A stretch of DNA of 64,000 bases. Source: a virus (Duplodnaviria > Caudoviricetes). Where the stretch lies: the IMG/VR virus record IMGVR_UViG_3300009082_000959, one strand, 5' to 3'. Every line of letters starts with the position of its first letter. The first letter of the stretch is position 1. This document shows positions 4,561-32,243 of this stretch, in pieces. Below the pieces are notes generated by a model, which saw only the letters and a list, made by a program, of their open reading frames with translations, did not search any database and was not told where the DNA came from. Both the position numbers and the translations under genes were made by a program.

Positions 4561-5353
4561 ATTACTTTTTAGAAACACACTGGCGGAAGAAAACGAATTA
4601 CAAATAGCAAAAAAATATTTTGATATAAAACAGTATCGTTCAGAAATTACTCCGGGAGCGTTGATTATAGGCAGATATTCTGTTCTACCTTACTATAATG
4701 AACTGGAAAAAGATATACTAAAATTAGGCGGCAAACTAATTAACTCCTACGAAGATCATCTTTATATTGCTGACATAAAAAATTGGTATCCTGATTACCG
4801 AGACATAACGCCTATGACTTGGTTCGACCCATCAGAAGCAATACGGTCCGACTTTAACGGTTCCTTTGTTTTAAAAGGCAATGTGAATTCTCGAAAGCAA
4901 TTGTTTAACACACATATGTTTGCTGCGAATAAATCTAATATAATGAAAGTTTATTGCAAATTATTAGACGACACTCTTATTCAATATCAGGGAATTTGTG
5001 TCAGAGAGTTTGTGAATTTAATCAACTACGGCAAAGACCAAGTAACCGGTTGCCCAATATCAAAAGAGTTTAGGCTTTTTATTTTAGACGGCAAAGTTCT
5101 TTCAAAGGGATATTACTGGTCAAATTTTGTTGAAGAAGCAGAAAATCCGGACCCAAACGAAATACCAGAAGACTTCATACAAGACGCAATCAAAAGATGC
5201 CCAGTAAGATTTTTTGCTATTGACTTGGCCCAGAAAACTAACGGTGATTGGATGGTAGTTGAATTAGGAGATGCACAGATGGCTGGTCCATCTTGTAATG
5301 ATTTAGATAGTTTATATAAAAACTTAAAGGAAAATCTATGCAAAAAAGTATGA
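4553..5353 (+). CDS. ATP-grasp protein (R2K-like clade)
   Basis: SFVLKG, ICVREFV, KEFRLFILDGKV, YYWS, FFAIDLAQ...WMVVELGDAQMAG. Confidence 0.7.
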   Translation: MIELLFRNTLAEENELQIAKKYFDIKQYRSEITPGALIIGRYSVLPYYNELEKDILKLGGKLINSYEDHLYIADIKNWYPDYRDITPMTWFDPSEAIRSDFNGSFVLKGNVNSRKQLFNTHMFAANKSNIMKVYCKLLDDTLIQYQGICVREFVNLINYGKDQVTGCPISKEFRLFILDGKVLSKGYYWSNFVEEAENPDPNEIPEDFIQDAIKRCPVRFFAIDLAQKTNGDWMVVELGDAQMAGPSCNDLDSLYKNLKENLCKKV

Positions 5354-6609
5354 CAGATGTATATTTGAGTGTTTTAAAACACAAATGGCATTTAAGTGTG
5401 GCAAGAATGCAATTGTTACCAGAAGAAGAAATTAGATTATATTTAATGCCAACGATTAATGGCTATTATTGGCGCTCCATAGTTATAGTTAGTGGAAGTC
5501 AATGCAAGTATCAATGACATACATTTATATTTATGCACTCAAACATAAATGGTGTCTTAATTTATGTGGTTCAGTATTTAAGAACGAAATTTGTTTAAGT
5601 ATGAGACCGGCAAGGAGCAGTAATTGTTATATTTTTCGTGTAAAGGAAATCTATGCAAGCAACAATGATGTATGTATATTTAAGTGTCCTAAAATATGAG
5701 TGGGGATTAAGGTTGGGGCAAAAAAATCCAATATTACAAAACAACAACATTTGTGTATGCTTGACTCAACCAACAATGTCTGGCGGTTATGGTTATCGTG
5801 AGTATAATTATTTAATTAAGGCAAAACAATGAGACCGATTATAAAGTATACATATTTATATGTATTTAAACACAATTTTGGTTTATCCGTTGATGTTCTT
5901 ACAAAAAATGAATTAGTGTTACTTGCAACACCTCTAAATAACAATGATTATTGTCCCTTTCGAATATTTATTAAGCAGGTAAGATTATGCAAGCAAATAT
6001 GATGAGTTTGTATTTTTATACATTAAAATATAATTGGCATTTAGAGAATACCCATATATCGGTGAAAATAAAATTTACATCGACATTAGACCAAGCGTAA
6101 ATGGTTTTCATTGCTTCCATATTATAATTGAGGGAAACACATGCAACCTAAAATGAAAACCGTATATATTCTTAATTTGAAGCACAACTATTGTGTGGAC
6201 AGCGCAGAAATAATCGATAGCGAAATTACAATATATTTAAGGTCATCCATTAATAGTTTTAAACGGCATACTATTACGATATACGAGGATCAAGCAGCAT
6301 GCAATTAGATATGGTAGATTTATATGTTTATGTGTTGAAATCTAAATGGAGTTTGGAGCGTGAAACAATTATATACGAAAATATGCTTTGGATATATATG
6401 AGACCAAAACTTAATAGTTTTTACCGTTATCGTATTACAATTAAAGGAAATTTATGCAAGAGTCTATGAAAGCCATATATATTCTTAATTTAAAATATAA
6501 TTACCAAATATTTAAAGATAAGATAGTAATAAACAATAATAAAATTAGATTAACTGTTGGTGGAATTCAAGTTGAGATGCATTTAAAATGGAGGAACAAA
6601 GATGATTAA
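5338..6609 (+). repeat. Array A: 8 tandem overlapping short ORFs of the 'MQxxM..YI.VLK' family (starts 5338, 5502, 5653, 5829, 5987, 6141, 6299, 6454)
   Basis: Manual translation, e.g. MQKSMTDVYLSVLKHKW, MQVSMTYIYIYALKHKW, MQATMMYVYLSVLKYEW, MQPKMKTVYILNLKHNY, MQLDMVDLYVYVLKSKW, MQESMKAIYILNLKYNY. About 160-nt period; several have AAGGA SDs. Confidence 0.8.
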
Positions 6610-7201
6610 TAAAGAGTTTGCAAATATAATGAACAATGCAAAAGATTTAACAATTGGGCAAGTATTTAAAATAATTACTCATCTTAAATTCAAAACAGTG
6701 GCCGCCGTTGTTGCTTTTTTTGTGGCGATCGTATCAGGTTCTTTTGTGATAGGTAGATATTCCTATCAAGAAAAAACGGCACTTACCCTCGATAGTCCAT
6801 TTGGTATGAGGTTGCTGATAAGTGAAAAACAATACGAATTCAAAAACCTAATCTTAATGGAAGACCCAATTAATTTGGCAGACAATAGTGTAATACTAAC
6901 TATACGAGAAATACAAAATGCCTTTGATATAGTTCCGATAGGAAAAATAGTTGCACGAAAAGAAAAAATTGAGTTGCCAGGAGTTTTTGGGTTGTTCAAT
7001 TTTAAGTCAATCGGAGTGGCCAAAGCATCAGAAGAGTTTAATTGGAACGGCCACGAGAACGATATGAATTTTAAGGAAGTATTTATTGATAGCAACACTA
7101 TAAACAGATACTACGAAGACGGTTGTATTTTAGAGTATAAAGTTTGCGAGGATAGAAAATCTAACAAAGGTTCTTTTAGATGGATACAACAAAATCATTA
7201 A
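6602..7201 (+). CDS. Hypothetical membrane protein
   Basis: Hydrophobic segment VAAVVAFFVAIVSGSFVIG; SD GGAGG upstream. Confidence 0.6.
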   Translation: MINKEFANIMNNAKDLTIGQVFKIITHLKFKTVAAVVAFFVAIVSGSFVIGRYSYQEKTALTLDSPFGMRLLISEKQYEFKNLILMEDPINLADNSVILTIREIQNAFDIVPIGKIVARKEKIELPGVFGLFNFKSIGVAKASEEFNWNGHENDMNFKEVFIDSNTINRYYEDGCILEYKVCEDRKSNKGSFRWIQQNH

Positions 7202-8629
7202 TGCAGGGTAGTATGAAAAATTTATACCGCGATGTATTTAAACATAATTTTTATGCAAAGGAAGTATATATTATTGAATGTTATACTTTAATTCGGTGTT
7301 TAAATAACCATCACGAATATGAAGTTTATCACTGTTACTTTAAATAAAGGACATTATTAATGCAATCAGAAATGATGAATGTATTTAAATGTGGAAATAG
7401 AATAAATGCTATTTGGATTATGGAAGGATATGTTGATATTTATTTTAAAGATTCTTTTTGGTATTCTTATTTTTTAGGTGCGCTTATTTTGAATAACGGA
7501 GTCACAAATGCAATCAGATATGATAGCTTTATACTGTGATGTATTTAAATGTAATTGTAAGATATCAAGTTATAAAATATTACCAAAATTTCGCGCAAGT
7601 TATGGAACACACAGAAACCACATTAGAGTAAGTTGCGAGGGATCATCACAACATGATTTTTATATTATTTGGTATAAAAAATGATGCAACCAGAAATGAT
7701 AAGATTATATAAAAATATGTTTAAATGTCATTACAAAATAGTAGAGCATTACTTTATAGAAAACAACAGTGATAATAAAAAATGGGTAGTTGTAAGGGCT
7801 AATGGTGGGTTTCCATATTATACTGCTCACTTTATTGAGTGTGCAAATGAATAATATACAATCATTGATGGGAAATAATATGAAAATGCTGTATGCCGAT
7901 GTATTGAATCGTGGCCTTAAAATTGTGAAAGCGCCCATTTTTCGTGGCAAATTTATGTATATTTTCGTCGAGGTTGGTCCGGGAAGAAATGTATGTAGTA
8001 TATTTCGCTGCACAATTTAGGTGAGAAGACAATGCAATTTTATATGAAACAATTATATTGCGATATTTTTATGAGAAAATATAAAATAATAAGTTATAGT
8101 GATGAATTAAGATATGTTAATTCTAATGAAAAAATTATTGAAATAGTTTGCGGTGAGAATGGGTATATTTATCATTATTCTATCCATCACAAATAAGGAA
8201 ATCTACTAATGCAATTTTATATGAAAGTGTTATATCGGGATTATTTTAAATATGGATATAAAATAAACAATGTATATATCGATGATTTATCTAATGATAT
8301 TTTAAATATTTATTGTCATACATGTGAGTATCAAACATATACCATTAGAATTGGCTTTAATTATATATATGACATATGAAAAGTATATAATTAAAGCCAA
8401 TTGATATTTATAAAAGTTTAAATTTATGTATGTTTGTTTTAAAGATTTAATGTAGCTTACTCATATACTATAAGGTTTAATAAAAATGCAATATAGTATG
8501 AGACAATTATATATAGATATATTTAAATATGGAGAAAAGCCAAAAAGTGCTACTATATCACATAAAAAAATTGTGATATTTAGTTCATATGGTGATTCGC
8601 TACTTAGATATACGATAGATTTAGTTTGA
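7201..8629 (+). repeat. Array B: 8 recognisable (+1 decayed) short ORFs of the same family (starts 7201, 7360, 7508, 7684, about 7844, 8032, 8209, 8486)
   Basis: MQGSMKNLYRDVFKHN, MQSDMIALYCDVFKCN, MQPEMIRLYKNMFKCH, MQFYMKQLYCDIF, MQFYMKVLYRDYFKYG, MQYSMRQLYIDIFKYG. Confidence 0.8.
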
Positions 8630-8653
8630 CACTTGTGTTTTTTTAACTATACT
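8626..8653 (+). promoter_or_regulatory. Sigma70-type promoter
   Basis: TTGACA-N16-TATACT upstream of SD AAGGAG and ATG 8671. Confidence 0.65.
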
Positions 8654-8670
8654 ACATATCAAGGAGACAA

Positions 8671-8889
8671 ATGAATAGAGAAATTTTAAGAAACAAAGCG
8701 AAGAAAATGTATAAAGAGAACATAAAAAATGTTGCAAAGAATCAAAGGATATCTTTCAATGAGTTTTTTAAACGATACCGCGAGTCTCTCAAAAATAAGA
8801 GTTCAGACATCGTTGAGACAGAAGGCCAAGAAGACTTTGACTTGGAACAAGTAGCGAATGTGAATGAAGTAACGGAAAAGAAAGGTTGA
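8671..8889 (+). CDS. Hypothetical protein
   Basis: ORF with strong SD and upstream promoter. Confidence 0.65.
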   Translation: MNREILRNKAKKMYKENIKNVAKNQRISFNEFFKRYRESLKNKSSDIVETEGQEDFDLEQVANVNEVTEKKG

Positions 8890-8919
8890 TAAAGTAAATA
8901 TAATACTCTTAACAATTAA

Positions 8920-11639
<2,720 letters not shown>

Positions 11640-11645
11640 ATTTTG

Positions 11646-11675
11646 AATAGTGGGTGGCGTTGGCTGCCCACTATT
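11646..11675 (+). terminator. Terminator hairpin after groEL
   Basis: AATAGTGGG...CCCACTATT stem. Confidence 0.7.
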
Positions 11676-11740
11676 TACTCAATTCTAATAATATTTTTAT
11701 TTAAGAAAGGAAACCAAAATCCAATAAAAAGTGAGCACCA

Positions 11741-12835
11741 ATGGCCAGAAGCACTACACTGAAAGTAAAAAATACTACCGGAACAACCATTCCAAGAAAT
11801 TCGGCGGTTTGTCTTTTGGGGTTTGATTCAGTCGATCAAGTCTCTTTGATAGGTCTCGCAAGCAATGAAAGCGAGGACACAATGCCGGCCATTGGTGTTT
11901 TGAGAGAAGATTTACTCAATAATGAAATCGGTGTTGTGAAAATTAGTGGGCCGCTTGCTGGTTTTGATACATTGTCGCAGGCCGTGAATGACTATGTTTT
12001 TGTTGGGGTTGATGGTGCTGTGACTTTTGAAAACCCAGCAACACTAAACTCTACCGCCGTGTCCCAACAAATAGGAACAGTGTCACTGGTTGCAGAATAT
12101 CCCAATGGTCAAATTTACTTTTTTCCTGCGGAGATTAAAAATAGAGTATCTCACGCTGAATTAGTTGATGTTACTTCTGACCAACATCATACTAAAAATC
12201 ATTCAGACCAACACGAAGCAGGAGGAAATGACGAAATAAGCCATAGTCAATTGATTGGTTTAGATGAAGATGTGCATCAGCAATACTCTTTGGTTGATGG
12301 AACTCGTGCTTTCACTGGAACTGTTGGAGGAATATCGCCAACCCACGATGCCGACCTTACCACAAGACTCTATGTAAATTTGGAAGACAATGCTATAAAA
12401 GAAGAATTAGATGGCTATGCCTTGGTTTCAATAGAGAACGTGCGGTGGTCCGAACTAAACGATCAGACACAAAACATAAGAGATGCAATAGACGGATATC
12501 ATACACCAGGAGCCAACAATCTTACTGTCTTAAATACTGGCGGATTTATAGGAAATTACAAATATATCAATGATGCATATACAACAATTACGGTAGATTA
12601 TATAATAGGAGCCTCACATGGCCGATCAGTAACCGTAACATTTGGATCAGATTGCGAGGTAGCAGGCAGAGTATTTTATGTTTTCGATAACGATGGTAGT
12701 GCATCTGCACTAAATAAAATAATATTTGCGTCACAGTCTGGTAAAAGTTTGGTTGGCGCATATTCGGGCGGAATAACAGTTGCTTATTTATCAGTAATGT
12801 GCATTTGTGATGGGACCAAATGGATTATAAATTAA
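11741..12835 (+). CDS. Probable virion structural / tail-fibre-associated protein
   Basis: Gly/Thr/Asp-rich beta-type composition, His-rich HHTKNHSDQH segment, and a C-terminal GRVFYVFDNDG...CDGTKWII pattern seen in phage fibre proteins. Confidence 0.5.
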   Translation: MARSTTLKVKNTTGTTIPRNSAVCLLGFDSVDQVSLIGLASNESEDTMPAIGVLREDLLNNEIGVVKISGPLAGFDTLSQAVNDYVFVGVDGAVTFENPATLNSTAVSQQIGTVSLVAEYPNGQIYFFPAEIKNRVSHAELVDVTSDQHHTKNHSDQHEAGGNDEISHSQLIGLDEDVHQQYSLVDGTRAFTGTVGGISPTHDADLTTRLYVNLEDNAIKEELDGYALVSIENVRWSELNDQTQNIRDAIDGYHTPGANNLTVLNTGGFIGNYKYINDAYTTITVDYIIGASHGRSVTVTFGSDCEVAGRVFYVFDNDGSASALNKIIFASQSGKSLVGAYSGGITVAYLSVMCICDGTKWIIN

Positions 12836-12842
12836 GGAAATT

Positions 12843-13106
12843 ATGGAAAATTACATTAACGAAATACTCAAAAAATTCAACGAAGATCAAAATCATCCAG
12901 AATTAAACGATACAGAAAAAACTCTTTTAAAAAAAATGTTGGAAGTAAATAGTGTTGTTTTAGAAACAATAGAAAAAATAAATCAATTAAATAAAGAAAT
13001 AGATGAAAGAAAACGGCATGGAGATGAATTAGTTCAACAGGTGATTAAACTTCAAGGGCAAAGCCAGGGTATTTTAGATTCATTGTTGTTGCTAAAATCT
13101 AAATAA
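12843..13106 (+). CDS. Hypothetical coiled-coil protein
   Basis: ORF with SD AAGGA; heptad-like pattern. Confidence 0.6.
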   Translation: MENYINEILKKFNEDQNHPELNDTEKTLLKKMLEVNSVVLETIEKINQLNKEIDERKRHGDELVQQVIKLQGQSQGILDSLLLLKSK

Positions 13107-13117
13107 CGAGGTTTAAA

Positions 13118-13411
13118 ATGAGCAACGAGAAAATTGCCGAAAGCCAAAAAGACAAAGCAATGCGGTTGATGTTTGCATTGTTTTGTGAAAGGGTAAGGGG
13201 AAAATGGGTTGTATCAGTTGGCCGTGTGTCATGGTGGCTATCATTTATTCCAGCATTATATATATGGCTGTTGTGTCCTGGCGAGGGTGTTGTTTCAGAT
13301 ATAACAGACCACCATATGACGTTGCTTATTACTCTGGCGGCATATAATTTAGGAAAGCATGGTCTCGAAGCAATGTTTAAAAAGAAGGAAGAAAAAGAAG
13401 AAGTAGCATAA
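13118..13411 (+). CDS. Small membrane protein, holin-like
   Basis: Two hydrophobic segments and a highly charged C-terminus (KKKEEKEEVA). Confidence 0.4.
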   Translation: MSNEKIAESQKDKAMRLMFALFCERVRGKWVVSVGRVSWWLSFIPALYIWLLCPGEGVVSDITDHHMTLLITLAAYNLGKHGLEAMFKKKEEKEEVA

Positions 13412-13434
13412 TAAACATTTATAGCTATAAAATT

Positions 13435-13460
13435 GGCCGACTTTTTGTCGGCCTTTTTAT
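13435..13460 (+). terminator. Rho-independent terminator
   Basis: GGCCGAC-TTTTT-GTCGGCC followed by TTTTTAT. Confidence 0.75.
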
Positions 13461-13472
13461 TTTGGGGCCGAC

Positions 13473-13697
13473 ATGATTTATAATACGATAAGTATAGAAG
13501 TATTTTCAAAACAATTAAAAGAATCATTGAGCGAGAGAGTGGAAAAATTTTCCAAACATATGGAAGAAAAATTTAAAAATAATCCGGAATCATCTACCCT
13601 AAAATCTAAACAAGATTGGATGGTAGAGTATCAAAAATGGATAGTAGCAGAGAGTATAAAGAAAAGTTGCATAGACTACATTGGAGAGACACAATGA
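13473..13697 (+). CDS. Hypothetical protein
   Basis: ORF track; ATGA-coupled to the next gene. Confidence 0.55.
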   Translation: MIYNTISIEVFSKQLKESLSERVEKFSKHMEEKFKNNPESSTLKSKQDWMVEYQKWIVAESIKKSCIDYIGETQ

Positions 13698-14317
13698 GAA
13701 TAGTTTGTATTTCTGATACACATAGAAATCACAGGAACATTAATGTTCCAGATGGTGACGTTCTGGTTCATGCTGGTGATATAGGATTAGAAAAATGTCA
13801 TCCGGGGTTAGTGTCCGACTTTAATGGTTGGCTTGGTAATTTGCCTCACAAGCATAAAATTATTATTCCAGGCAATCACGATTACTACATAGAAAGATTT
13901 CCAAAAGAAGTTAGAGAACAACTCACTAATTGTAATCTTTTAATAGACCAATCAATAATGGTAAAGGGTATTAAATTTTATGGTTCTCCTTGGCAACCAG
14001 AATTTTTTAATTGGTCTTTTAATCTGCCGCGGGGTGAAAGATTAAAAAAAGTGTGGGATAATATTCCAAGTAGCACTGATATACTAATTACGCATGGACC
14101 TCCTGCTGGAATTTTAGATAAAACTTACGATGGATTATCTGTTGGGTGCAAAGATTTGCTTGAAAGAATTGACGCCTTAAAATTGAAAGCGCATATATCA
14201 GGACATATTCATTTCTCGTATGGCTCTGTGAAAATTGGAGATACTACTTTTGTGAATGCCAGCCTGTGCGATGATAGAAATATTTTAATAAATGAACCAA
14301 TAGTAATAGATATTTAG
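13694..14317 (+). CDS. Calcineurin-like metallophosphoesterase
   Basis: ISDTH, HAGD, PGNHD, ITHGPP, GHIH motifs; start MRIVCISDTH at 13694. Confidence 0.9.
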   Translation: MRIVCISDTHRNHRNINVPDGDVLVHAGDIGLEKCHPGLVSDFNGWLGNLPHKHKIIIPGNHDYYIERFPKEVREQLTNCNLLIDQSIMVKGIKFYGSPWQPEFFNWSFNLPRGERLKKVWDNIPSSTDILITHGPPAGILDKTYDGLSVGCKDLLERIDALKLKAHISGHIHFSYGSVKIGDTTFVNASLCDDRNILINEPIVIDI

Positions 14318-14324
14318 GTAAAAA

Positions 14325-14678
14325 ATGATAGTTTTACACGATGTATATACTGCATATTTGTCTGGTTTGACTACCAAACTCAACGAAAAAGAAATTTGGT
14401 GGAAAACTCCTTACGGATTAAGTGTTACAGTAGAATTGGTTAATGTTCGGTGGGAAAAGTATATTGTTAGACGATATTGGAGCAATGGTAATGTATGCTG
14501 GGAAAGAAATTATTATAAAGATAAACAGCACGGTTCAGACAAAAGTTACTATGAAAATGGCAGTATATGGCTTGATGCCAACTGGTGTAAAAACCGTTTA
14601 AACGGTTGGATAAGTGAATATTGTAGCGACGGAACATTAATATACAAACAAAATTACAAACACGGAAAATTACTATGA
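14325..14678 (+). CDS. MORN-variant repeat / YwqK-like protein
   Basis: MIVLHDVYTAYLSGLTTKLNEKEIWWK leader plus repeats. Confidence 0.75.
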   Translation: MIVLHDVYTAYLSGLTTKLNEKEIWWKTPYGLSVTVELVNVRWEKYIVRRYWSNGNVCWERNYYKDKQHGSDKSYYENGSIWLDANWCKNRLNGWISEYCSDGTLIYKQNYKHGKLL

Positions 14679-15163
14679 CAGATTTACATATAATGATGAC
14701 TAATTATCTTGCCTTAGCAGCTAAACAAAAAACTGATATGACACTTTTGCACGATGCCTACGCAGCATATTTGTCTGGCCTTACCACTAAAAAAAATGAA
14801 AACGAAATTTGGTGGAAAACCAAGGATGGATATAAAATTACCGTAGAATTGGTAAATTTAAGATTGGAAAAATATATTGTAAGGGACTACTATGATGACG
14901 GTAGTTTGTGGAGCGAAGAAAATTATCGCAAAGGCCAATTACACGGTCGGCGTGTGAGTTATTTTAAAAATGGCAAGTTAAGATGTGAAGAAAATTATTA
15001 CAACAGTCAATTACACGGTTTGTATAAAGAATATTATGAAGATGGTAGTTTAATGTTCAAAATAAGTTATGACAAAGGTCAATTACATGGGCCAATAATA
15101 GAATACCGTGATGGCAATATATATAGTACAACCACGGACAAAGAATATGACACTTTTACATGA
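14675..15163 (+). CDS. MORN-variant repeat / YwqK-like protein with doubled leader
   Basis: Degenerate leader MTDLHIMMTNYLAL, then MTLLHDAYAAYLSGL at 14738; YYxDGSL...GQLHG repeats. Confidence 0.75.
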   Translation: MTDLHIMMTNYLALAAKQKTDMTLLHDAYAAYLSGLTTKKNENEIWWKTKDGYKITVELVNLRLEKYIVRDYYDDGSLWSEENYRKGQLHGRRVSYFKNGKLRCEENYYNSQLHGLYKEYYEDGSLMFKISYDKGQLHGPIIEYRDGNIYSTTTDKEYDTFT

Positions 15164-16590: not shown

Positions 16591-16597
16591 GGAAAAC

Positions 16598-16915: not shown

Positions 16916-17033
16916 TGCATTATATTTTATAGTTTTTGTGAAGGGTTATAAATTATCAAACGATGAAACAAAGATTTATATTCTTTCAAAAACGGATGGC
17001 CGGCAGTTATGCTGGTATCCAATACATGATTAA
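16896..17033 (+). CDS. Small protein, possible divergent member of the short-ORF family
   Basis: MTVTENNALYFIVFVKGYKL. Confidence 0.4.
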   Translation: MTVTENNALYFIVFVKGYKLSNDETKIYILSKTDGRQLCWYPIHD

Positions 17034-17053
17034 TTTAGATAGGAGATGATGCT

Positions 17054-19021: not shown

Positions 19022-19037
19022 ATGGAGAGTATAGAAT

Positions 19038-20913: not shown

Positions 20914-20978
20914 GTCCAAGTAAATACTAAAATTTATTTAGTTTATTAGGAAACATTAACAGAAAAGTGAGGTAAAAT

Positions 20979-21296: not shown

Positions 21297-21311
21297 TTTG
21301 CGGAGTAAAGT

Positions 21312-21830
21312 ATGGTAAAAATTCAACCAAAATTTAAAGTCGGAGACACAGTGTTCGCCACTAAAATTGATGAAGAAGTTAGTGTTATTGCCGTTAATGT
21401 TAATGAAGAAAACATAAATTATACTCTATCAAGACAATATGTAATGCCCGAAATTTACTTAGAAAAATCAAGAGAGAGCGCTTCATATAAAAACAGCATC
21501 GACTGTCTGATAGAGAAAAATAATATATGTTTTAATAATATAGAACAGGCGGAAAACGAAATTAAACGTCAAGAAGAAATATTAGAAAAATGTTCAGCAA
21601 AGTTAAACAATAAACGAGAATCTGTAAAACCCAGAAATATAATTGATGATTGGAGGGTAATCAGTTATATTAATGATTTATATCTCGAAATCTCCCAAGC
21701 AAAACATTATATTAAAAGAGGCAAAGCTCGCATTAAAAGTTTAAAAAATAATTTAAAAACAAACAATGAAAAAATAAAAGAACTAAAAAAAGAAATGTTG
21801 GTGTTAGAATTGTCAGGAATAATGAAATAA
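21312..21830 (+). CDS. KxKVGD / coiled-coil / LxG-tail family protein
   Basis: PKFKVGDTVF N-terminus; C-terminus KEMLVLELSGIMK. Confidence 0.65.
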   Translation: MVKIQPKFKVGDTVFATKIDEEVSVIAVNVNEENINYTLSRQYVMPEIYLEKSRESASYKNSIDCLIEKNNICFNNIEQAENEIKRQEEILEKCSAKLNNKRESVKPRNIIDDWRVISYINDLYLEISQAKHYIKRGKARIKSLKNNLKTNNEKIKELKKEMLVLELSGIMK

Positions 21831-21867
21831 AAGAATATCTGATTACGAAATTGTCTGGGATTGAAAA

Positions 21868-22071
21868 ATGATGAATAAAAGTGATACTGACCAAATTTAT
21901 GTTTCTGTGTTGAAATTTAATAGGTCAATTTGCCACGAAGGCGAACTGATTAAATTATTACTTCCAAATACCCCAGTGATTGTAAAGTTTATAAAAATAA
22001 CCGGCGGCCAAACTGCGTGGCTTCTTGATCGTCACGATAGAGACATATACAACTTTTACGGAGAACAATAA
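21868..22071 (+). CDS. Short-ORF family member
   Basis: DQIYVSVLKFNRSI. Confidence 0.6.
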   Translation: MMNKSDTDQIYVSVLKFNRSICHEGELIKLLLPNTPVIVKFIKITGGQTAWLLDRHDRDIYNFYGEQ

Positions 22072-22340
22072 TGATAAAACACACAATAGCCGGACTTAAA
22101 AAAGATATCTGTGAAAAATTTATTATAGAAGATGATGACATTACTTTTCATAATGGTGATTTTATAATAACATTTTCTCTTAAATATTTGGCAGAAGCGG
22201 CAGGTAAGTTTTTTGAAAGAGACATTTGGCATCACAAACAATCCAAATATCAAAAAGAACACTGGGAACTAAAAATTCCGGTAGAGAGGATGCGTTTGAA
22301 AAACTACTCAATTTGTGATAGGAGCCTGAATGAAATATAA
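22071..22340 (+). CDS. Hypothetical protein
   Basis: ORF track, coupled to neighbours. Confidence 0.55.
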   Translation: MIKHTIAGLKKDICEKFIIEDDDITFHNGDFIITFSLKYLAEAAGKFFERDIWHHKQSKYQKEHWELKIPVERMRLKNYSICDRSLNEI

Positions 22341-22650
22341 TTATAATTTGGTTGAAATGACTCCGGAAATATATAAAGAAATAGACTACCGAATACGTGA
22401 CGCAGAATATAAAGAGTATAATTATAATATTGAAAGTAACACAATTACCATAGAAATATGGAATGAATCGCATCATAATGGTAATATATATGACGATTAT
22501 AGATACGACATATTGGTTCCATGGTGGTTTAATGATGCAATTTTTAATATGCTGCGTAACACAGCAGAAAATAATTTAACTCAAATAAACAAAAACATTA
22601 AAAATGTGTTCTACGCTTTATTAGACACAAACAAAAAACTTGGAGTTTAA
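22330..22650 (+). CDS. Hypothetical protein
   Basis: SD AGGAG; ORF track. Confidence 0.55.
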   Translation: MKYNYNLVEMTPEIYKEIDYRIRDAEYKEYNYNIESNTITIEIWNESHHNGNIYDDYRYDILVPWWFNDAIFNMLRNTAENNLTQINKNIKNVFYALLDTNKKLGV

Positions 22651-22651
22651 A

Positions 22652-22903
22652 ATGAAAAACGAAGAAATGGAAACAATGTATGTGGAGTGCATGTGTGAAG
22701 ACCAATCACACACTTTAAGGTTTTCACAAATAGGTGAAGATGTTTGTGTATCAATGCACCTAACTATGTTTGGATTTTGCGTCCGACTTTGGAATGCTCT
22801 GAAATATATCTTTGGCCATCGATCGAAGTTTGGTGATTTCGAGGAAACCATTTTGGAAAGAAAAGATATAAAAAAGATAGTTGGGTTTCTGAAAAATGTC
22901 TGA
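22652..22903 (+). CDS. Hypothetical protein (CxC...H)
   Basis: MYVECMCEDQSHTLRF. Confidence 0.55.
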   Translation: MKNEEMETMYVECMCEDQSHTLRFSQIGEDVCVSMHLTMFGFCVRLWNALKYIFGHRSKFGDFEETILERKDIKKIVGFLKNV

Positions 22904-25900
22904 ATATATGCAAGATTTTTATAAATCTGTTTTTAAATACGGGACGAAAATTATAAAAAAATACGAATTATGTAGTAATAATTTGTCCATTGATTTAAAA
23001 AACAAGGGTGGGTATTCCGGGATTAGATATTATTTTTATTGCAGGATAAATAAATATGATATTGACTGACGAAGAAAGAATATTGTATATTAAAAGAATA
23101 TATATTTATCTTTTAAAAAAAAAGGAGTGATAGCAAAAAGCCATACACGTGATGCTTTTTATCATAGCGTAGTTACGATTGGTGTTCCGGGAGACATATT
23201 TTGTGCAGACAATTATTTATCTGAATGTAGGTGATTTGTGCAATACGGAATGATGAATGTTTATATTATGTATTTCAAACGCAAACATAGTATTTATGCC
23301 GGCGGTAAAATTAAAGAATTTAATAATATATATTTGCGTGTAGATTTTATAATTAATGGGTATGTTAGGGGCTACACTATACTGCAAAAATAATGTTGGA
23401 GTAAGTTATGCGCGAATCTATGAAAATGGTTTATGTTAAATTTCTAAAACACAAACAAATAATATACAAATATGAAATTTATCAATATTTTGGCAAAGAA
23501 TTTGTAGCGATAGAGTTTAATGGTTTTGGCGTTTGGCCTTACCGAGTTTCAATAGAGGTAATATAGGTGGCAGACTATGCAGCAACATATGAAAATAGTT
23601 TATATTAGATTTATGAAAAAACAACAACAAATATGTGCATATAAAATTAGACTCAATTATCTGACGGTAGATTTTAATATATTCGAAAGTATTTGGCATT
23701 ATTATATCAATTTTTAAGAAAGTTAAATCATGCAATACGAAATGATGCAAATATATACTAAAATTTTAAAACATGGTCGTAAAATTGATTCTTATAGTAT
23801 GTTGTTTGATTCTACTTGTTTAGAGGTTAATATTTTTCCTTCCACTTATTTTATATAATATCGGAGTAGTTTATGTGTGGTCTTATGAGGATAGCGTATA
23901 TATGTGTTTTAAAAAAGAATTGTGATATTTGTATATCCGATCGCATTCCAACTACATCTGGGTATGATAAAATTAAATCAAAACCACCATCGAACGACAT
24001 CTGCTTTTATATTTCGGATAAATTTTAATCATGCAATATGAAATGATTGACCTTTATATTGAAATCCTAAAATATGGTTCCAAAATTAATAAATATTATA
24101 TGGTTGGTAATGATTATTTGGGTTTAGATATTTATATTTTCCATTTTTATATTAAACAGAAAGAACAACAATGACTGATGCGATGAAGAAATTTTATATT
24201 TATGCTTTAAAATATGGATACGGGATTTACATAAATGAGTGGCGGTCAATTAGCCTCGGCGGCGATAGAATTTGTATTGAGCTTTATCCTCCCACGAAAA
24301 ATTCTTAATTTTGTTTTAAGGTAAAATAATGGACTGTATGATGCAAGTATTTTATATTAGTATATTAAAACAAAAATATATACCAGAAATAACAGAAAAG
24401 TTAATAACTTCTGATGGCCGTCATAGGGTTTTTATTAGATTAAAAGGCGTAGATTATTCTGAATTCTTTTTTACAAGCGAGTTTTGATTATGCAACAATC
24501 TATGGTAAATTTATATATTGATGTATTAAAATATAATTACCACATTGTGGGAGCATTTTCAGCAGAATATTATAATTTATATTTCACATTGCGTGAAGAC
24601 TACACACATTATTTTTTTATAGAGAAAACGTGAACACTCACTCAATATACATTGACTTTTTCAAAAACAAATTCCCAATTGTTTGGTATCACGTTTTTGA
24701 GAGCGGCGGAACTTGGTGGGTTGAAATCGAAACAGAATGGAATAAATATTTTATACGACAAGGCAAACAATGAGTATTCCAAATAGTATGCAGTCAATAT
24801 ATATTCAAATTTTAAAATATAAATGGTCAATAACAAAGTCTTATCCAGTAGTGAGATTTTGTGGCATTGATAGTGTGGCCATAGAAATAAATTGCCTGCC
24901 TTATATACTGGTGCAAAGGGCGCAAAATGACAGAATGTGGCATTAATTCTCTATATATTAGTTTATTTAAAAACAAACACACAATAAAAGATTATCGAAT
25001 ATTTAACCTTAATGGTTTTTCATTTATTATCATCTACACAAATGAAAACTTCAACAATAAATATTATGTTCTTTCAGGAGTCTAAATGTATAATTATATT
25101 GCACCAAATGGTTTTTGCAAAAATGCAATTTTTGGCATATATATTCAAATTTTCAAAAACAACTGGTCCGGCAGAGTGGTTGGAAGAGTAAATGAAAAAT
25201 TATGCACAAGTATAACAATAGAATTAACAGACCCAAAAAATAAATATAATTGTGAAACAATTTATAAAGAATTATTTGCCGGAGATTTACGGACACGATA
25301 ACAAAATGACAGAAAATATAAGACAAATTTATAGGCAAGTTTTTAGGAACAAATGCACCTTGTGGCAAAAAACAGACACTGAAATAATAGTGATGCATAA
25401 CACTTTACAATTATATAGACTTTATGTTTGTGAGGAGCCGGTGCCAGGAATTTATTTTTTCTAATGAGGTAAAAATGGATTGGAAAATAGCAAACATTTA
25501 TCGCGGTGTTTTTAAGTTTGGCGAAAAAATCGAAGTTATAAAAGCAAACAAAAACTTTTTAATGGCCAGCACGACAGATTGTGATGGTTATAAGACTTTA
25601 TATTATTTATATAGTCTTGAAAGCAAATAGGTAGAGGTATGACAATGCTACCATATCGAACAATTTATCGCAGAGTTTTAAAATATAACTATACTATGAC
25701 ACAAAGAAATATAAATAATTATGGGATACATAGTGAAATTTCTTTTTGGTTGGGGCAAACACTAGCAAGCTCATTTATTGTTTATGGTAATGGAGTTTAT
25801 TCTTGGAGAACTTAATGGCAATTCCAATAGCGTGTGAAATGACATATATAAAAGTTTTAAAATACGGCTACACGATGGAACAAACGAAAAAATGCTCACC

Positions 25901-28758
25901 GAAGCCAGAAACAGCGTAGAAAAAGCAAAGAGAAATTTTTTGATTATGAAATTAGCGGGGTTAAGTCGCAACACCTAAAATGTTGCGTGGATTGAAACAA
26001 ACAGAATTCTATGGCCCTCACTTTATTTGGACTGGAAACCGATGCAAGTAGAAATGAAATATTTATACATAAACATACTTAAATATAACAACAAAATATA
26101 TAAAATGAAGCTCTCCAATTACTGGCTAATATTACAAGCAAACGATGAAGCACAAAATTATCATAAAGTTTATATTATATACGACAAGGAAATAAATGAC
26201 TAATGGCATGAAAGATTTATATATCTATGTATTTAAAGAAAATTGCAAAATATATAAACCATTTTATTGGGGTGACTACCTTGTGATTAATTGTAAATCA
26301 TCATTTAGTGATCCTGTCTTTGATTGCTGGATTAAAACATGCAAGTAGATATGCAAAATGTTTATATAGATTTCTTTAAGCATAATTACACAATAAAACA
26401 AACATCACATTATAGTAAGTGGTGGAAACTTGTTATTAGAAATAGTAAGGGAACTTATTATTATAACTATTATTATCGAGTGAAACATAAATGACAGAAG
26501 AAATGCAAAGTTTATATACAAAGATAATTAAGTATAATTACAAAATATATGAGGTAGGATATTTGGACGCTTGGTGTATATTATATGTTAAAAGTAAAAG
26601 TGCTAATGGGTTTTACACACAAAATTGTTTTATTGAATGGAAACATGAATGACTACTGGTATGAAAGACATTTATAGATATTTCTATAAGCATAATTATA
26701 CAATAGAAAAAATTCCAACCCATTTAGGCAATACATTAGAGCTTCGCATAAAAGATAAGAACGATTTATCTTGCTCTTATTTTTTCTTTTATGGTGGAAG
26801 ATAAATGATTAAAGATATGCAAAATGTTTATATAAATTTCTTTAAGTATAATCACACAATAAAACAATATGGTAATTGGTGGCAACTTGTTATTGGAAAT
26901 AGTAGTGGAGGCTATTATTACAACTATTGTTGTCGGGTGGAAAAGTAAATGACTAATGGCATGAAAGACATTTATATCTATGTATTTAAGTTTGGTTTCA
27001 AAATATATCAAAATCACACTTACCGCGATTTTTGCGAGTTTTATGTGGTTGGCCCTCTTGAAACTTTGCGTCTTTGTGTAATTGATTAGTGGAGAAATAT
27101 TATGATACCGAGTGCAATGAAATTTGTATATATAAAATCATTTAAGGGTGGTGATAAAATTCATGCATATCACAATCATCACGAACTTGGTTTTCTTGAA
27201 ATTTGTTTTAAGCATTGGTTTGTTGGCAGTATAATAAGGCGTTTTATTCACTATGGAAAACGAAAATGCAAGTAGCAATGAAAGACATTTATATAAGTGT
27301 ATTTAAATACAATCATAAAATATATGATTATTATCCCTATGATGATTTATGCGTAATCTATATTAAAGATAAATACAACATTTTTACGGGGAGATATAAT
27401 GTCAGACATGCAATATGATATGAAAAAACTTTATATATCTATTCTTAAGCATAAAGCGCCCATACGCTCATGCACTAGACATACCAGTGGATTTTATGTG
27501 ATTAAGGCATATGTTAAAACAATTTATGTAGAAAAATTAAAGAGATACTATATTTTTAGATTACCGACGAGCAAAAAATGAAAGAGCACATAAGAGAAAT
27601 TTATATAAGTTTGCTCAAACGTAACTACACAGTATATGCATGTTTTAGGTCACCTGATGATTACGAATATATAATCGATCTTCGAGTAAGCTATTATTTT
27701 GCTTTCGATAGACATTTTCTTCGGCCACGGGAGTTGGAATGCAAAGAGATATGATAAAATTGTATGTTGATTTTTTTAAGTATAATGTTGCAATATATAA
27801 GATGGAAACGCCAGAATATTTGGAAGATACAGTTATGGTGTTTTGTGTGTCAAAATCTAATCTTTATTATTTTAATTATTGCACTATTAGAAAGTAATAT
27901 ATGATGCCACTTAATATAAAAAGCATTTATTTGAAATATTTTAAATTTAACCTTCCGATATTATCATTTTCTGAATCTGGATATGATGAGGGTGGATACA
28001 TAATTGATATTAAATCAACTCTTCCTACATATTTGGAGAGATATATTCTACTGCCAACATTATCTCGCCACACACTTGTTCGATTATAATATTTGGTGCC
28101 AAATGTCTTATGAAATAGCAACAATATATACCGAATTATTTAAGCACAAGGGAAGAATAATTGGTTTTAATCACTTAAACACTTACTATGACATAACAAT
28201 AAGTTTGTATGGTTCCTATGACGCGCATCACTTATATATTACTTAAAGGGAAAAATATGCCAGATAAAATTAGACATCTTTATATGTGTATGTTTGTTTG
28301 GGGCTGGACTATAAATAAAATAATTGAAAGAAATAACCATTATAGTATAGAAATTTTTTCTGATTCAATGAAGTATAAATATAATTATAGATTGGAAAAA
28401 TAATGATATTGCCATATAAAATTAATAATATTTATGTATTATTGTTTAAGCGTAATTGGATTGTGAATGAAGTAATTGAGAGAGATGAATGTTATGATAT
28501 TTATATATCTGCTTCACCTCGCATAATCAGCGCATGGAATTTATATAGATTGGACAAACAATGACTTGGGCAATGAACAGAATTTATTTTAGGTTGCTAA
28601 AACATAAAAATACAGTTGTTTCAGTAGATAAGCAAAATGAAATAAATGCATATGTTGTAAAATTACGCGACCAAACATCCCAGTGTGTTTATACTTACGT
28701 TCTTTATGACGATAATTCACCAGCAATAGTATTTAATAAAGGATCAAATAATGATTGA
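22896..28758 (+). repeat. Array C: about 36 tandem short ORFs of the 'M-x3-M..YI.VFKYN' family
   Basis: Manual translation, e.g. 22896 MSEYMQDFYKSVFKYG, 23730 MQYEMMQIYTKILKHG, 24031 MQYEMIDLYIEILKYG, 24490 MQQSMVNLYIDVLKYN, 26042 MQVEMKYLYINILKYN, 26196 MTNGMKDLYIYVFKEN, 26339 MQVDMQNVYIDFFKHN, 26805 MIKDMQNVYINFFKYN, 27739 MQRDMIKLYVDFFKYN, 28561 MTWAMNRIYFRLLKHK. About 160-nt period. Confidence 0.85.
25965..25998 (+). CRISPR. Second solitary type I-C-like CRISPR repeat unit, embedded in array C
   Basis: GTCGCAACACCTAAAATGTTGCGTGGATTGAAAC; differs from 1662-1696 only in the loop. Confidence 0.8.
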
Positions 28759-29335
28759 TATAAACATTTACTCTTATGGTTCTCGTGTTTATGGAACGCA
28801 CACAGAAAATTCAGATTTTGATTATATAGTTGTTTCAGATACACAAATTCCCCACCAGCAAATAGACAAAGAAAATACAAACTATACGATTTATAGTATG
28901 GAGGAATTTTATAAGCAAATACGGGAATATGAAATATCAGCCTTGGAGTGTTTGTTTTTGCCAGCCAATCAAATAATTAAAAACTCTCAACCAATTCAAC
29001 CACCGTCCGACTTTGACTTGGGAAAACTTCGGTCTTCCATTTCCGCAAAGGCGTCTAATAGTTTCGTAAAGGCCAAGAAAAAGTTTATAGTTGAAAAAGA
29101 CCGTAATATTTATGTTGGTAAAAAGAGTTTGTTTCATTCTTTGCGAATTCCTATTTTTGGTTGTCAGTTGGCTACCAGCGGAAAAATCACAAATTATGCA
29201 GCAGCTAATCATTACTGGCCGGATATACTAAATAATCCCAGTGAGAATTGGGAGGATTACCACAAAATTTACAAACCCATTCACAATAAAGAAATGACAG
29301 AATTCCGGAAACACTGCCCAAAGGAAAACACATGA
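28751..29335 (+). CDS. Nucleotidyltransferase (Pol beta superfamily)
   Basis: YGSRVYGTHTENSDFDYIVV motif. Confidence 0.8.
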   Translation: MIDINIYSYGSRVYGTHTENSDFDYIVVSDTQIPHQQIDKENTNYTIYSMEEFYKQIREYEISALECLFLPANQIIKNSQPIQPPSDFDLGKLRSSISAKASNSFVKAKKKFIVEKDRNIYVGKKSLFHSLRIPIFGCQLATSGKITNYAAANHYWPDILNNPSENWEDYHKIYKPIHNKEMTEFRKHCPKENT

Positions 29336-30012
29336 AAAAAGAATTAGAAGAAAAACTATTTAAAGACTTTCCGCTACTTTATGGCGATCGCAACAGACCA
29401 ATGACCGAAACTTGTATGTGCTGGGGGTGTTCGTGCGGCACAGGCTGGTTTGATTTGATTTATGAGTTGTCGTCTAAATTGGAACCACTCATTGAGGAAA
29501 TAAAATTAGCGAGCGATGGTGGTCCTTGTGAGCGCTGTGGGTGCTCAAAGGATAGTCACCACGGAGAATGTCAAACAATCGTAAATCATCCATTCTTACT
29601 GAAAGTTCCATATTCTTGTGAAGTTCCTAATTTAAGTGTTTCTCTTAAAAGAAATAAATCTTTTTTGAGGGGAATAAAAGATTATGTTCGTGTGTTGTGG
29701 AAAAAGCATAGAACATCAATGAGGAAAGCAATAAATCGTGTGTCGTATTTCCTTTTTAAGAAGTCAATTCTATCTTACAAAAAGAAATGTTTCTGTGATT
29801 GTTATAGCATTTCCCACCCACGCGCCTCGCAGGTAAAAGAAAAAATGGGTGAAATGAAAATGTATCTCACACACGGAACCGACGAAATGTTTGATTTAAT
29901 TGACAAAGCAACTGAAAAGTCTCTTACTATTTGTGAGAACTGCGGCCAACCAGGAAAGCCAAACGAATACGGTTGGATATCTGTTCTGTGCGAGGAATGT
30001 AGGAAAAAGTAA
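29332..30012 (+). CDS. Conserved phage hypothetical protein (QVKEK...CExCG type)
   Basis: GTGWFDLIYELS, QVKEKMGEMKMY, TICENCGQPG...LCEECR. Confidence 0.6.
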   Translation: MKKELEEKLFKDFPLLYGDRNRPMTETCMCWGCSCGTGWFDLIYELSSKLEPLIEEIKLASDGGPCERCGCSKDSHHGECQTIVNHPFLLKVPYSCEVPNLSVSLKRNKSFLRGIKDYVRVLWKKHRTSMRKAINRVSYFLFKKSILSYKKKCFCDCYSISHPRASQVKEKMGEMKMYLTHGTDEMFDLIDKATEKSLTICENCGQPGKPNEYGWISVLCEECRKK

Positions 30013-30765
30013 ATGGATCGTAATATTAGTAGCCTATACATAAATATATTTAAAAATAACTGTAAAGTTTATGAGTTTGTAAATGAAAAAAACTTGTATA
30101 TTATTAGAGTGGAATTACGCGGTTGGTATAAGCCATGTTTTTTGTGGAAATAATATAGAAAGCGGTTGAAATGTATTACCTTATGAGTGTTGTATATATT
30201 AGTGCATTAAAAGATAAATGTAAGATTAATATTGCAGAAGATGAATTCTCATATATTGTTTGGGTTGTTCCAAAAATTGGGTATAGTGTTCCCTATTATC
30301 TAAAAAGGTAATTGAATGAGATACGAAGTGTTTTATATGTATTTTTGGTTGTTTAAACATAATCTTAAAGTTATTGAGTTTATAGAAGAGGAAAATGAAT
30401 ATATAATTTATCTTGAACCAGGTCGTAGCTTGCGTCCATATGTTTTTAAAAAATAGAAAGAGAATTATAATGATTTATGGTATGCGTTATATTTACAAGA
30501 AGTTCTTTAAATATAATTACAAAATTATAGGATTTGAGTATAAAAATGAAAAATTATTAATTTATGTTAATGATATGTTTCCACGTGCCATATGAAATTC
30601 TTTGTTAAGGCGCCGGGCATGAGTTATTATATGTGTAGTATTTATATACAGTTGCTTAAATATAAATACAAAATTATAAAATTTAAAGAAACAAACGATA
30701 AATTAATATTTTATTTTGATGATAATATTATCGACCTATCTTTTCCCTACGAGGTTAAAAAATGA
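30013..30765 (+). repeat. Array D: 5 short-ORF family members (30013, 30171, 30316, 30470, 30619)
   Basis: MDRNISSLYINIFKNN, MYYLMSVVYISALKDK, MRYEVFYMYFWLFKHN, MIYGMRYIYKKFFKYN, MSYYMCSIYIQLLKYK. Confidence 0.75.
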
Positions 30766-31220
30766 ATATATTTGTTTTAGATTTAGAACCATCCAAAGCC
30801 GCTAAATTTCACGCAGACAAGCATGTAATAAAATTAATTCTGGAAACAGCGCAGCTGCTTTCTACGGCCGTTCGGTTAAGTGGTATTGATTTTGGATATC
30901 GCATTACACATCAAAATCATCCGTGTAGCCTTTGGACCAGAAAAACAAGAGCAAATTTTGAGTGGCTTAAAGAATTAGGTATCGCATTGTGCGAAGAATA
31001 TACTTATAGATATGGAAAAATTCACGCAAGCGAAAGTATTATTCGTGGAGCACCCAATCAAATAATTACCGCCGGCCCACTTACTCCTTTTGCACAAGCA
31101 ATGCCAGAAGAATATAAAAATAATGACCCAGTTGCGGCATACAGAAATTATTATTTAGCTGAAAAGAAAAACTTATTACACTACACAAAAAGGGAAAAAC
31201 CAGAATGGATAAAAATTTAG
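30762..31220 (+). CDS. Pyrimidine-dimer DNA glycosylase / endonuclease V family protein
   Basis: MNIFVLD...DKHVIKLILETAQLLST...HQNHPCSLW...AYRNYY. Confidence 0.8.
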   Translation: MNIFVLDLEPSKAAKFHADKHVIKLILETAQLLSTAVRLSGIDFGYRITHQNHPCSLWTRKTRANFEWLKELGIALCEEYTYRYGKIHASESIIRGAPNQIITAGPLTPFAQAMPEEYKNNDPVAAYRNYYLAEKKNLLHYTKREKPEWIKI

Positions 31221-31558
31221 CAGACGCTTTTATACAAGAACTATTAAATAAAAAACGTCTTGGCAAAGAGAAACTAAAATTAGTGTTAAATGAACTTTTC
31301 AAAAGAGGAAATTTGGACCAAGAGGACATAAAATACAATGAGTCAAAATTTCCCTTCACCAATAAAGAGTTTGCCGCTGCGTTTGAGCACTTGGTCGATG
31401 GCAAGAAACCATCGAACGCGACGAACGACAACGAAGTGTGGATTTTTGACCACAGGGGCCATATTTTTACGGCAGAAATAATCATGGGCCAAGGGTCATC
31501 ATATATTTTATCAATGGGTTCTCGTTACTCAAAGTTGCCAGTGATAAAATTAAAATGA
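31205..31558 (+). CDS. Hypothetical protein
   Basis: ORF track. Confidence 0.5.
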   Translation: MDKNLADAFIQELLNKKRLGKEKLKLVLNELFKRGNLDQEDIKYNESKFPFTNKEFAAAFEHLVDGKKPSNATNDNEVWIFDHRGHIFTAEIIMGQGSSYILSMGSRYSKLPVIKLK

Positions 31559-32243
31559 GTCCATCGATTTATAGATTATACGTGGATATATTTAAGCACA
31601 AAATAAAGGCAAAGTGGAAGACCCGTAAGGGTGAAAATTATTTTATGATTTATTCGAGCCAGGAAAATGGAATAAACCACTTTTATTTGTTGGTTGAAAC
31701 TAAAAATGGATAAGTCAGTTTATAGATTATATATAGATATTTTTAAAAACAATATTAAGGCCGACTGGACTGTTACCTATATGATTGATTATGTGTGGGT
31801 TGTTGCGGAAGAAGACAATTATGGGTTTCGTAGTTACTTTTACATATTACAGGAAATAAAATAATGGATTATTCTGTTCGTGAAATGTATATAAATATTT
31901 TAAAATCAAGATCAAAAATATACGATTATCATGTTTATTTTGATAATTCTGTCCGAATTTCTGTTATAGGTAATAATTTTAAAAGATATCACGTTATACT
32001 TGTTTCTTCTAATAAACTTAAAAATAAACATATAATTTGGTCGCGTTATGGACTTTATAATAATCCACGCAAGCATTGGGAATAAATATGAGTTCAAACA
32101 TTTATAGACTATACATTAATATTTTTAAATACGGCGGTCGAATACTAAATCAATTTACAGAACATAATGGAGATATAGTAATAAACTTATCAAATAGTTG
32201 GTTTTGTTCTGTTTTAAGGAGTAAGAATGATTTACCTGGATAA
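31555..32243 (+). repeat. Array E: 4 short-ORF family members (31555, 31707, 31864, 32088)
   Basis: MSPSIYRLYVDIFKHK, MDKSVYRLYIDIFKNN, MDYSVREMYINILKSR, MSSNIYRLYINIFKYG. Confidence 0.8.

Follow-up and report, generated by a model that had tools for sequence, protein, structure and literature searches.

We analyzed five tandem arrays of very small genes that lie in a 64,000-nucleotide stretch of viral DNA, referred to here as the window, which spans bases 23668 to 87667 of the 105,248-bp IMG/VR virus record IMGVR_UViG_3300009082_000959 (Duplodnaviria; Caudoviricetes). The patterns of conservation, codon usage, and gene layout indicated that these arrays consist of about 64 real and translationally coupled genes, each coding for a diverged copy of one domain of about 50 residues. 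This domain is predicted to form a simple alpha-plus-three-beta unit for which no relative could be demonstrated, and its copies arose by old local tandem duplication, with occasional decay (birth and death). As for their role, we tentatively favor a repertoire of small host-directed binders.

Arrays of small paralogous genes

A loose regular expression for the N-terminal motif of the family retrieved 39 open reading frames (ORFs) starting with ATG, all of them on the plus strand and all but one belonging to the family. The motif itself occurs 43 times, with 17, 14, and 12 occurrences in the three plus frames and 0 on the minus strand, versus a mean of 0.29 and a maximum of 3 in 100 second-order Markov shuffles. 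Thus, its frequency is not matched by shuffled sequence, the control named in the original prediction made from this DNA. A hidden Markov model (HMM) was then iterated over all stop-to-stop frames of the record (E < 0.01) and converged on 62 matches on the plus strand versus 1 on the minus strand. A start codon stands at the expected place in 61 of the matches, 60 of which fall within the window. Inspection of the gaps added a weak unit at about 28257 to 28403, a degenerate unit at 7360, a weak singleton at 21868, a stop-bearing copy near 23050 to 23235, and a frameshifted unit at 5987/6034. The family HMM had no match in 1.17 Mb of other viral loci, nor in 0.87 Mb of metagenome loci.

In total, the window holds about 64 paralogous genes of 34 to 73 codons, arranged in five arrays (8 + 8 + 36 + 5 + 4) plus three singletons, all on the plus strand (Table 1), and one additional copy lies upstream of the window (G000, 7662 to 7811). 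The unit counts and coordinates that had been predicted for arrays A to E and for the singletons at 611, 21868, and 35985 match ours almost exactly. The predicted layout of abutting or overlapping units, with a periodicity of about 160 nt and a coverage of about 10 kb, was also recovered: the median start-to-start spacing is 158 nt, 47 of the 48 close junctions either overlap (typically by 1, 4, 8, 10, or 16 nt) or are at most 25 nt apart, and the units together cover 9.6 kb.

To measure information content by codon position, the units were aligned on an invariant Tyr codon. The first two positions carried much information and the third little (e.g., 1.25 versus 0.38 bits, 0.90 versus 0.10, and 1.21 versus 0.16). 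Since the first two codon positions are conserved and the third is free, the constraint acts on the protein and not on the DNA. A codon-usage log-likelihood score trained on the 33 long genes of the window was positive and frame-correct in 59 of 60 units, with a mean of 8.0 versus 12.5 for pieces of bona fide genes of equal length. Furthermore, a Shine-Dalgarno (SD)-like tetramer is present 4 to 17 nt upstream of 63% of the family starts versus 21% of the other 670 ATGs in the region, and ORFs of 34 to 73 codons are kept in sixty units on a single strand of a genome with 30% GC. The arrays overlap flanking enzyme genes at both ends and are therefore embedded, by translational coupling, in longer operons. 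The codon periodicity of the conservation, a codon usage like that of the phage, SD sites, and stop/start overlaps all speak for the real protein-coding family of very small paralogous proteins that had been proposed.

The original prediction had also entertained the idea that the conserved N terminus serves as a recombination handle at the DNA level. This was not borne out, as conservation follows codon positions 1 and 2 with the third position free and there is almost no DNA identity between units. More generally, it is extremely improbable that the units are a noncoding repeat acting in DNA or RNA, whether as a recombination handle, an array of promoters, or a structured RNA, with frames that are open by chance. 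The regular spacing of about 158 nt would suit such a repeat, but Tandem Repeats Finder detected no DNA repeat in the arrays, and a 1-kb piece of array C matched the rest of the record at just three places, each of about 45 nt and about 80% identity. Scans for sigma-70 promoters and terminators showed no enrichment, and no Rfam family matched the units.

Not every copy is intact (Table 1). The frameshifted unit of array A is interrupted by a single frameshift just after the helix motif and away from any long homopolymer, and it represents either a pseudogene or a single-base assembly error.

Table 1. Family arrays, individual units, and other features, in window coordinates
Feature	Position	Strand	Remarks
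Array A	5338-6609	+	8 units; ATP-grasp gene (4553-5353) ends within the first, and gene 6602-7201 starts within the last
Frameshifted unit (array A)	5987-6156	+	N-terminal half 5987-6100 and C-terminal half 6034-6156 in different frames
Array B	7201-8629	+	8 units, including degenerate unit 7360-7539 without the invariant Tyr
Array C	22896-28758	+	34 intact units, plus a weak one (about 28257-28403) and a decayed copy; nucleotidyltransferase gene 28751-29335 starts within the last unit
Decayed copy (array C)	23050-23235	+	Helix motif recognizable, then in-frame stop codons
Modeled representative unit (array C)	26196-26348	+	Predicted helix 3-14 and strands 18-25, 28-34, and 41-47; mean pLDDT 83.7
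Span with the youngest duplicate pair	26339-26948	+	Units 26339-26494 and 26805-26948
Array D	30013-30765	+	5 units; begins one base past gene 29332-30012; DenV-like (Pyr_excise) gene starts at 30762, within the last unit
Array E	31555-32243	+	4 units; class-V aminotransferase gene starts at 32227, within the last
Singleton, atypical	611-793	+	Model with helix, beta-hairpin, and C-terminal helix; pLDDT 71.5
Singleton, weak	21868-22071	+	Helix motif; family HMM E of about 1e-3 in a small search
Singleton	35985-36185	+	N-terminal extension of 11 residues
CRISPR-repeat-like hairpin, solitary	25965-25998	+	34 nt, located in array C within its 122-nt gap; not a family member
TnpB/Cas12f-like gene 1	1957-3198		TNB domain
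TnpB/Cas12f-like gene 2	59526-61121		TNB, HTH_OrfB_IS605, and OrfB_IS605 domains

A predicted helix-and-sheet domain

A representative unit of array C was modeled with AlphaFold2 from an input alignment of 55 paralogues. The model (Table 1; pLDDT is the predicted local distance difference test and pTM, here 0.56, the predicted TM-score) consists of an N-terminal helix followed by three antiparallel strands, and the model of the atypical singleton at 611 to 793 shows the same helix and hairpin at lower confidence. Column statistics of the family agree with this arrangement. Tyr at position 9 is invariant and Lys at position 14 is 95% conserved. Positions 1, 5, 8, 9, 12, and 13, which lie on one face of the helix, are hydrophobic in 93 to 100% of the members, and position 19 is of hydrophobic character too. 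In the comparison of the columns with the model, K14 and N/K/G16 close the helix, positions 17 and 19 begin strand 1, and positions 26 to 28 form a polar turn (N/D/G, also E). Strand 2 shows an alternation at positions 30, 32, and 34, and positions 41 to 46 are aromatic, mostly Tyr. In composition, Tyr accounts for 10.8% of the residues, 2.9 times its share in the rest of the proteome, and Trp is enriched 1.7-fold. The proteins are mostly basic, with a median isoelectric point (pI) of 8.8 and a net charge mostly between +1 and +5, and no hydrophobic stretch long enough for a membrane span was found in them.

The original prediction had described these proteins as a conserved N-terminal tag on a hypervariable body that nevertheless keeps an aromatic strand pattern. 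The latter part was confirmed by the alternating hydrophobic and aromatic positions in the columns. A separable tag on an unrelated body was not supported: helix 3-14 is predicted to pack on the three-stranded sheet, and an HMM built from the first 20 positions alone gave 62 matches in the 105-kb record, comprising 61 family members and the decayed copy, with none on a larger or unrelated protein. The "tag" is thus most simply seen as the helix at the core of one small domain, and the "hypervariable body" as the sheet of that domain. The helix would be conserved because it supplies most of the hydrophobic core together with the helix cap (Y9, K14, and N/G16), and the strands would drift because only an alternating hydrophobic pattern is required of them.

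Some foreign homologues depart from the simple one-domain form. P0024, a 104-residue protein on a 911-bp ENA contig, is a head-to-tail fusion of two family domains, from which it follows that the domain works as a self-contained unit. Two others (L007:6734-7150 and L009:9953-10264) have, in front of the domain, a conserved stretch of about 40 residues with the motif W-G-I...M-H-P-D-T-W, and they represent a subfamily to which an N-terminal module has been added. Since such a conserved extension stands before the helix in these homologues, the helix is not obligatorily N-terminal.

Relatives of the domain were sought by sequence and by shape. Scans of 58 window members and 61 foreign members against Pfam and PHROGs gave scattered single chance matches, none of them consistent, and PDB sequence profiles yielded no supported relative. 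These data bear out the earlier statement that the proteins belong to no recognizable family. The Foldseek comparison that had been suggested with it was run against PDB, BFVD, and the AlphaFold DB clusters and produced no match better than an E value of 0.04, with Sso7d/Sac7d appearing in its list for the sheet. A shape search of the ESM Atlas found half-glyoxalase modules only, and a language-model search for look-alikes proposed HigB_toxin at 0.77, which is below any useful level. With the structural aligner VIA-align, for which by its own calibration a Z score below 8 may reflect a common arrangement, two groups came out on top: halves of glyoxalase/VOC modules (Z of 5.3 to 5.9, root mean square deviation [rmsd] of about 3 Å) and four HicA toxins (4p78_D, 6g26_E, 1whz_A, and 5yrz_D; Z of 4.0 to 5.0). 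Both resemblances are weak, with values below 8 that may be due to chance. The best HicA match, 4p78_D, reached a Z of 5.0 and an rmsd of 1.9 Å over 46 of 50 residues, and the half-glyoxalase modules score as high.

Three candidate homologies were examined further and found no support. In the case of HicA_toxin (PF07927), the family resembles the HicA/dsRBD-like fold in its size, the predicted order of an N-terminal helix and three antiparallel strands, and the basic character, but it lacks sequence-profile similarity, the catalytic His, the C-terminal helix, and the HicB partner. The Pfam model had no match in the 105-kb record at an E value of up to 10; among the members, it matched none of the 58 from the window and one of the 61 foreign ones (E of 0.06), and hhalign gave a probability of 0.1 with a HicA alignment that is narrow and of the E. 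coli type. There is no conserved catalytic His at the turn between strands 1 and 2, where positions 26 to 28 are N/D/G/E, typical members are predicted by AlphaFold2 to have no second helix, and the adjoining genes are family members or enzymes, none of them HicB-like. For VOC/glyoxalase, only the alpha-beta-beta-beta part of one module aligns, the proteins here being 50 residues long and without the first strand; no metal-binding His/Glu is conserved, and no Pfam Glyoxalase match was obtained. The immunity protein BtpiA of a type VI secretion system (9jdi_C) was matched at an E value of 0.04 with a mixed profile, was not reproduced with a profile of window members only, found no pertinent backing in the literature, and was treated as a chance match.

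Homologues, divergence, and genomic setting

When 1.84 billion representative proteins were searched with the family profile, 53 matched, 41 of them the window's own proteins and 12 foreign. The foreign contigs carry arrays of their own, with 30 members in 9 kb on contig L005, 21 on L007, and 10 on L009; a fourth contig, L008, has a single member. L005, L007, and L009 are mutually related and share nothing but the family with the phage studied here, and L008 is related, at 60 to 73%, to the stretch of the record that precedes the window. At least two phage lineages therefore carry the family. Comparison of L005 with L007 shows just about three clearly syntenic orthologues (62, 49, and 43% identity), versus 61 to 65% identity for the larger flanking genes, and array content thus turns over faster than its neighborhood.

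Elsewhere, the family was not encountered. A tblastn search of GenBank phages with one member gave no match, and the family profile, which found 50 matches in its own record as a positive control, had none in phage G (JN638751), phage 121Q (KM507819), or two IMG/VR phages of 345 to 364 kb. The neighboring genes 6602-7201 and 32227-33390 have no relatives in IMG/VR, the 80 loci found through gene 29332-30012 hold no family member, and a metagenome scan with the GroEL gene retrieved mostly loci at 51 to 56% identity, again with no family member. DNA identical (100%) to that of the phage was found in a Logan contig, and the sole run that holds the sequence is a DNA metagenome from freshwater sediment. 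A protein look-up places family proteins on contigs of 223 and 289 kb.

Units in the window tend to have their best paralogue among their neighbors, at a median rank distance of 3 versus 18 for random pairing. The pairs are mostly at most 50% identical, and most are saturated at synonymous sites. The only pair above 61% is formed by the units at 26339 and 26805, whose proteins are 67% identical. This youngest pair differs by about 20.5 nonsynonymous versus 3.5 synonymous substitutions, a ratio of nonsynonymous to synonymous rates (dN/dS) of about 1.1, and these numbers are too small to claim positive selection. The pattern fits old tandem duplication with relaxed or diversifying change soon afterward, followed by purifying selection and occasional loss. 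Proximity of the best paralogues, saturation of the pairs, and the presence of decayed copies all speak for divergence by tandem duplication, in keeping with the paralogous tandem arrays of the original prediction.

Long tandem arrays of paralogues in jumbo phages are already in print: phages G and 121Q carry tandem arrays of >30 similar genes, which were attributed to tandem duplication that expanded the genome (Hua et al. 2017, mBio, PMC5646251). Those arrays and the ones described here are alike in that a very large phage holds long head-to-tail series of paralogues that derive from tandem duplication and have no assigned function. They differ in several respects, since the present family is a different one, with no profile match in G or 121Q, the copies here are far more diverged (mostly at most 50% identical), they are distributed over five arrays with enzyme genes in between, and an unrelated phage group has the family as well. 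Blocks of short genes are also reported for crAss-like phages; these resemble the present arrays as tiled, tiny, lineage-restricted, and moderately conserved genes that are overlooked by standard annotation. What is new here is an undescribed family of that kind, which stands out by its copy number, its confidently predicted fold, and its occurrence in two unrelated phage lineages.

As for the genomic setting, CheckV puts the completeness of the 105,248-bp record at 26%, and the record is therefore a fragment of a very large, uncultivated phage. The G+C content is about 30%, and all long ORFs are on the plus strand. Recognizable genes of the window code for GroEL, trigger factor, a DnaE-type polymerase, RecA, SbcCD, two TnpB-like proteins, an R2K ATP-grasp protein, a nucleotidyltransferase, a DenV-like glycosylase, and a class-V aminotransferase. 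Together with enzyme genes, the micro-protein genes are organized in operons that belong to the early/replication region of this huge phage. The GroEL-type chaperonin (10041 to 11639) is full-length, and the trigger factor (49384 to 50697) is complete with its N-terminal, FKBP, and C-terminal domains; to our knowledge, a trigger factor is unusual cargo for a phage. The ATP-grasp gene, of the R2K clade, overlaps the first unit of array A, and an internal tandem repeat of 72 nt is located upstream, at 4328 to 4484. Another ORF, at 34793 to 35668, encodes a repeat protein rich in Lys, Glu, and Tyr and holds a 45/90-nt tandem repeat at 35080 to 35253.

A CRISPR-repeat mimic had been predicted inside array C, and the 34-nt sequence is indeed present, in the only sizeable gap of that array (Table 1). 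A second copy of 34 to 35 nt lies at 1662 to 1696, with an identical stem and 3′ tail and a different loop, and each of the two is solitary and outside any CRISPR array. We take these hairpins to resemble type I-C CRISPR repeats. They have no match in Rfam, and the exact pattern was absent from 185,579 species genomes in two scans. The first of the two TnpB/Cas12f-like genes starts 260 nt downstream of the hairpin at 1662 to 1696. The CRISPR-like repeat within array C provides no more than circumstantial evidence of anti-defense use.

Possible functions of the family

Among the functions considered, a birth-and-death repertoire of small host-directed binders, acting in host takeover, counter-defense, or an immunity-like role, is the most likely, and we put it forward tentatively. 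The proteins would be soluble cytoplasmic binders, whose paralogues may have diverged on the exposed sheet and loops to engage different targets of the host or of competing elements, so as to constitute jointly a takeover, counter-defense, or immunity-like repertoire. Consistent with this are the many diverged copies on one scaffold, the pattern of duplication and decay, the separate array expansions (30, 21, and 10 copies) with poor orthology between related phages, the probable co-expression with early/replication-type genes that the operon layout suggests, the dN/dS of about 1.1 in the youngest pair, and the hairpin in the gap of array C. If the repertoire were rebuilt lineage by lineage, this would explain why few members are orthologous between related phages.

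Several observations weigh against such a repertoire. The database matches to the family bring no names and no Pfam domains and hence no informative relative. No RNA run holds the array sequence, which was found in just one DNA run, and the only other copy of this phage that was found is 100% identical and offers no population-level variation. The pTM of the model is just 0.56, and ESMFold2 did not fold the chain confidently in a homodimer prediction, whose score of 0.01 speaks neither for nor against a dimer. The dN/dS above 1 comes from a single pair with 24 substitutions, and older pairs range from 0.14 to 0.7 with saturated synonymous sites. Finally, mostly basic proteins (median pI of 8.8) with 10.8% Tyr suit nucleic-acid binding equally.

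A poly-immunity or decoy repertoire is conceivable but doubtful. Each 50-residue domain would neutralize a different host defense effector, toxin, or rival-element toxin, the set would be rebuilt by duplication, and the hairpin would mark a combined protein-and-RNA counter-defense island. The MGF of African swine fever virus (ASFV), the gene "accordions" of poxviruses, and bacterial poly-immunity loci consist of duplicated and diverged small binder-type proteins with lineage-specific turnover, linked to host range or toxin neutralization. The likeness is one of analogy only, as there is no homology to the family here and no toxin gene nearby. If true, the poly-immunity or decoy reading would make the arrays the largest single-family anti-defense repertoire known in a phage.

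The basic, Tyr-rich composition brings in another alternative, namely, that the proteins use a HicA/dsRBD-like sheet to bind RNA or single-stranded DNA and serve as regulators, as chaperones, or as toxin-like RNA binders that are catalytically dead. The pI, the charge of mostly +1 to +5, and the 2.9-fold Tyr and 1.7-fold Trp enrichment agree with it, the best full-length matches at low rmsd are the four HicA toxins, and Sso7d/Sac7d appear in the Foldseek list for the sheet. We nevertheless regard it as unlikely, since a Z of about 5 is within the chance range of the aligner, the HicA Pfam model finds nothing in the record (hhalign at 0.1; 1 of 61 foreign members at an E of 0.06), the conserved His at the strand 1-2 turn and the second helix are missing, and a generic nucleic-acid binder would hardly call for sixty diverged copies. 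A largely neutral, runaway tandem duplication, tolerated by or serving as filler in a huge genome packaged by the headful, with little function in individual copies, is unlikely as well. It would account for the decayed copies and for the near-neutral dN/dS of the youngest pair, and the G and 121Q arrays have been taken simply as genome expansion (PMC5646251). It does not readily account for the finding that about 60 of the approximately 64 copies keep their frames, starts, SD sites, and fold-defining residues despite saturated synonymous divergence, nor for the dN/dS of 0.14 to 0.7 in older pairs and the persistence of the family in two unrelated lineages.

The internal proteins IPI, IPII, and IPIII of phage T4 have an N-terminal capsid-targeting sequence and a variable remainder and are encoded at polymorphic loci. 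The present family resembles them in its conserved N-terminal segment, variable remainder, and polymorphic loci, and its helix could by analogy be a capsid-targeting signal on variable bodies that are packaged and injected to blunt host defenses. We consider this very unlikely. A portable tag of the T4 type should be separable from its cargo and recur on otherwise unrelated proteins, and the helix was found on no other, larger protein of the record. It is instead predicted to be integral to the domain and packed within it, no conserved protease-type cleavage motif follows it, some foreign homologues have a conserved extension before it, and one homologue carries two domains fused in tandem. 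Moreover, the arrays lie among replication and repair enzyme genes and not among head genes.

Taken together, a repertoire of small host-directed binders remains the reading we prefer. Known factors of host takeover and anti-defense come mainly from small phage proteins, yet genes of <60 codons are routinely missed. With about 64 copies of a 50-residue domain in this phage and 10 to 30 in unrelated phages, the family represents a natural library of variants on one scaffold. If its members bind different targets, they would provide a screening set for defense inhibitors and a compact binder scaffold; if they do not, the arrays document the growth of huge phage genomes by tandem duplication. Either way, the family model now allows such genes to be annotated.

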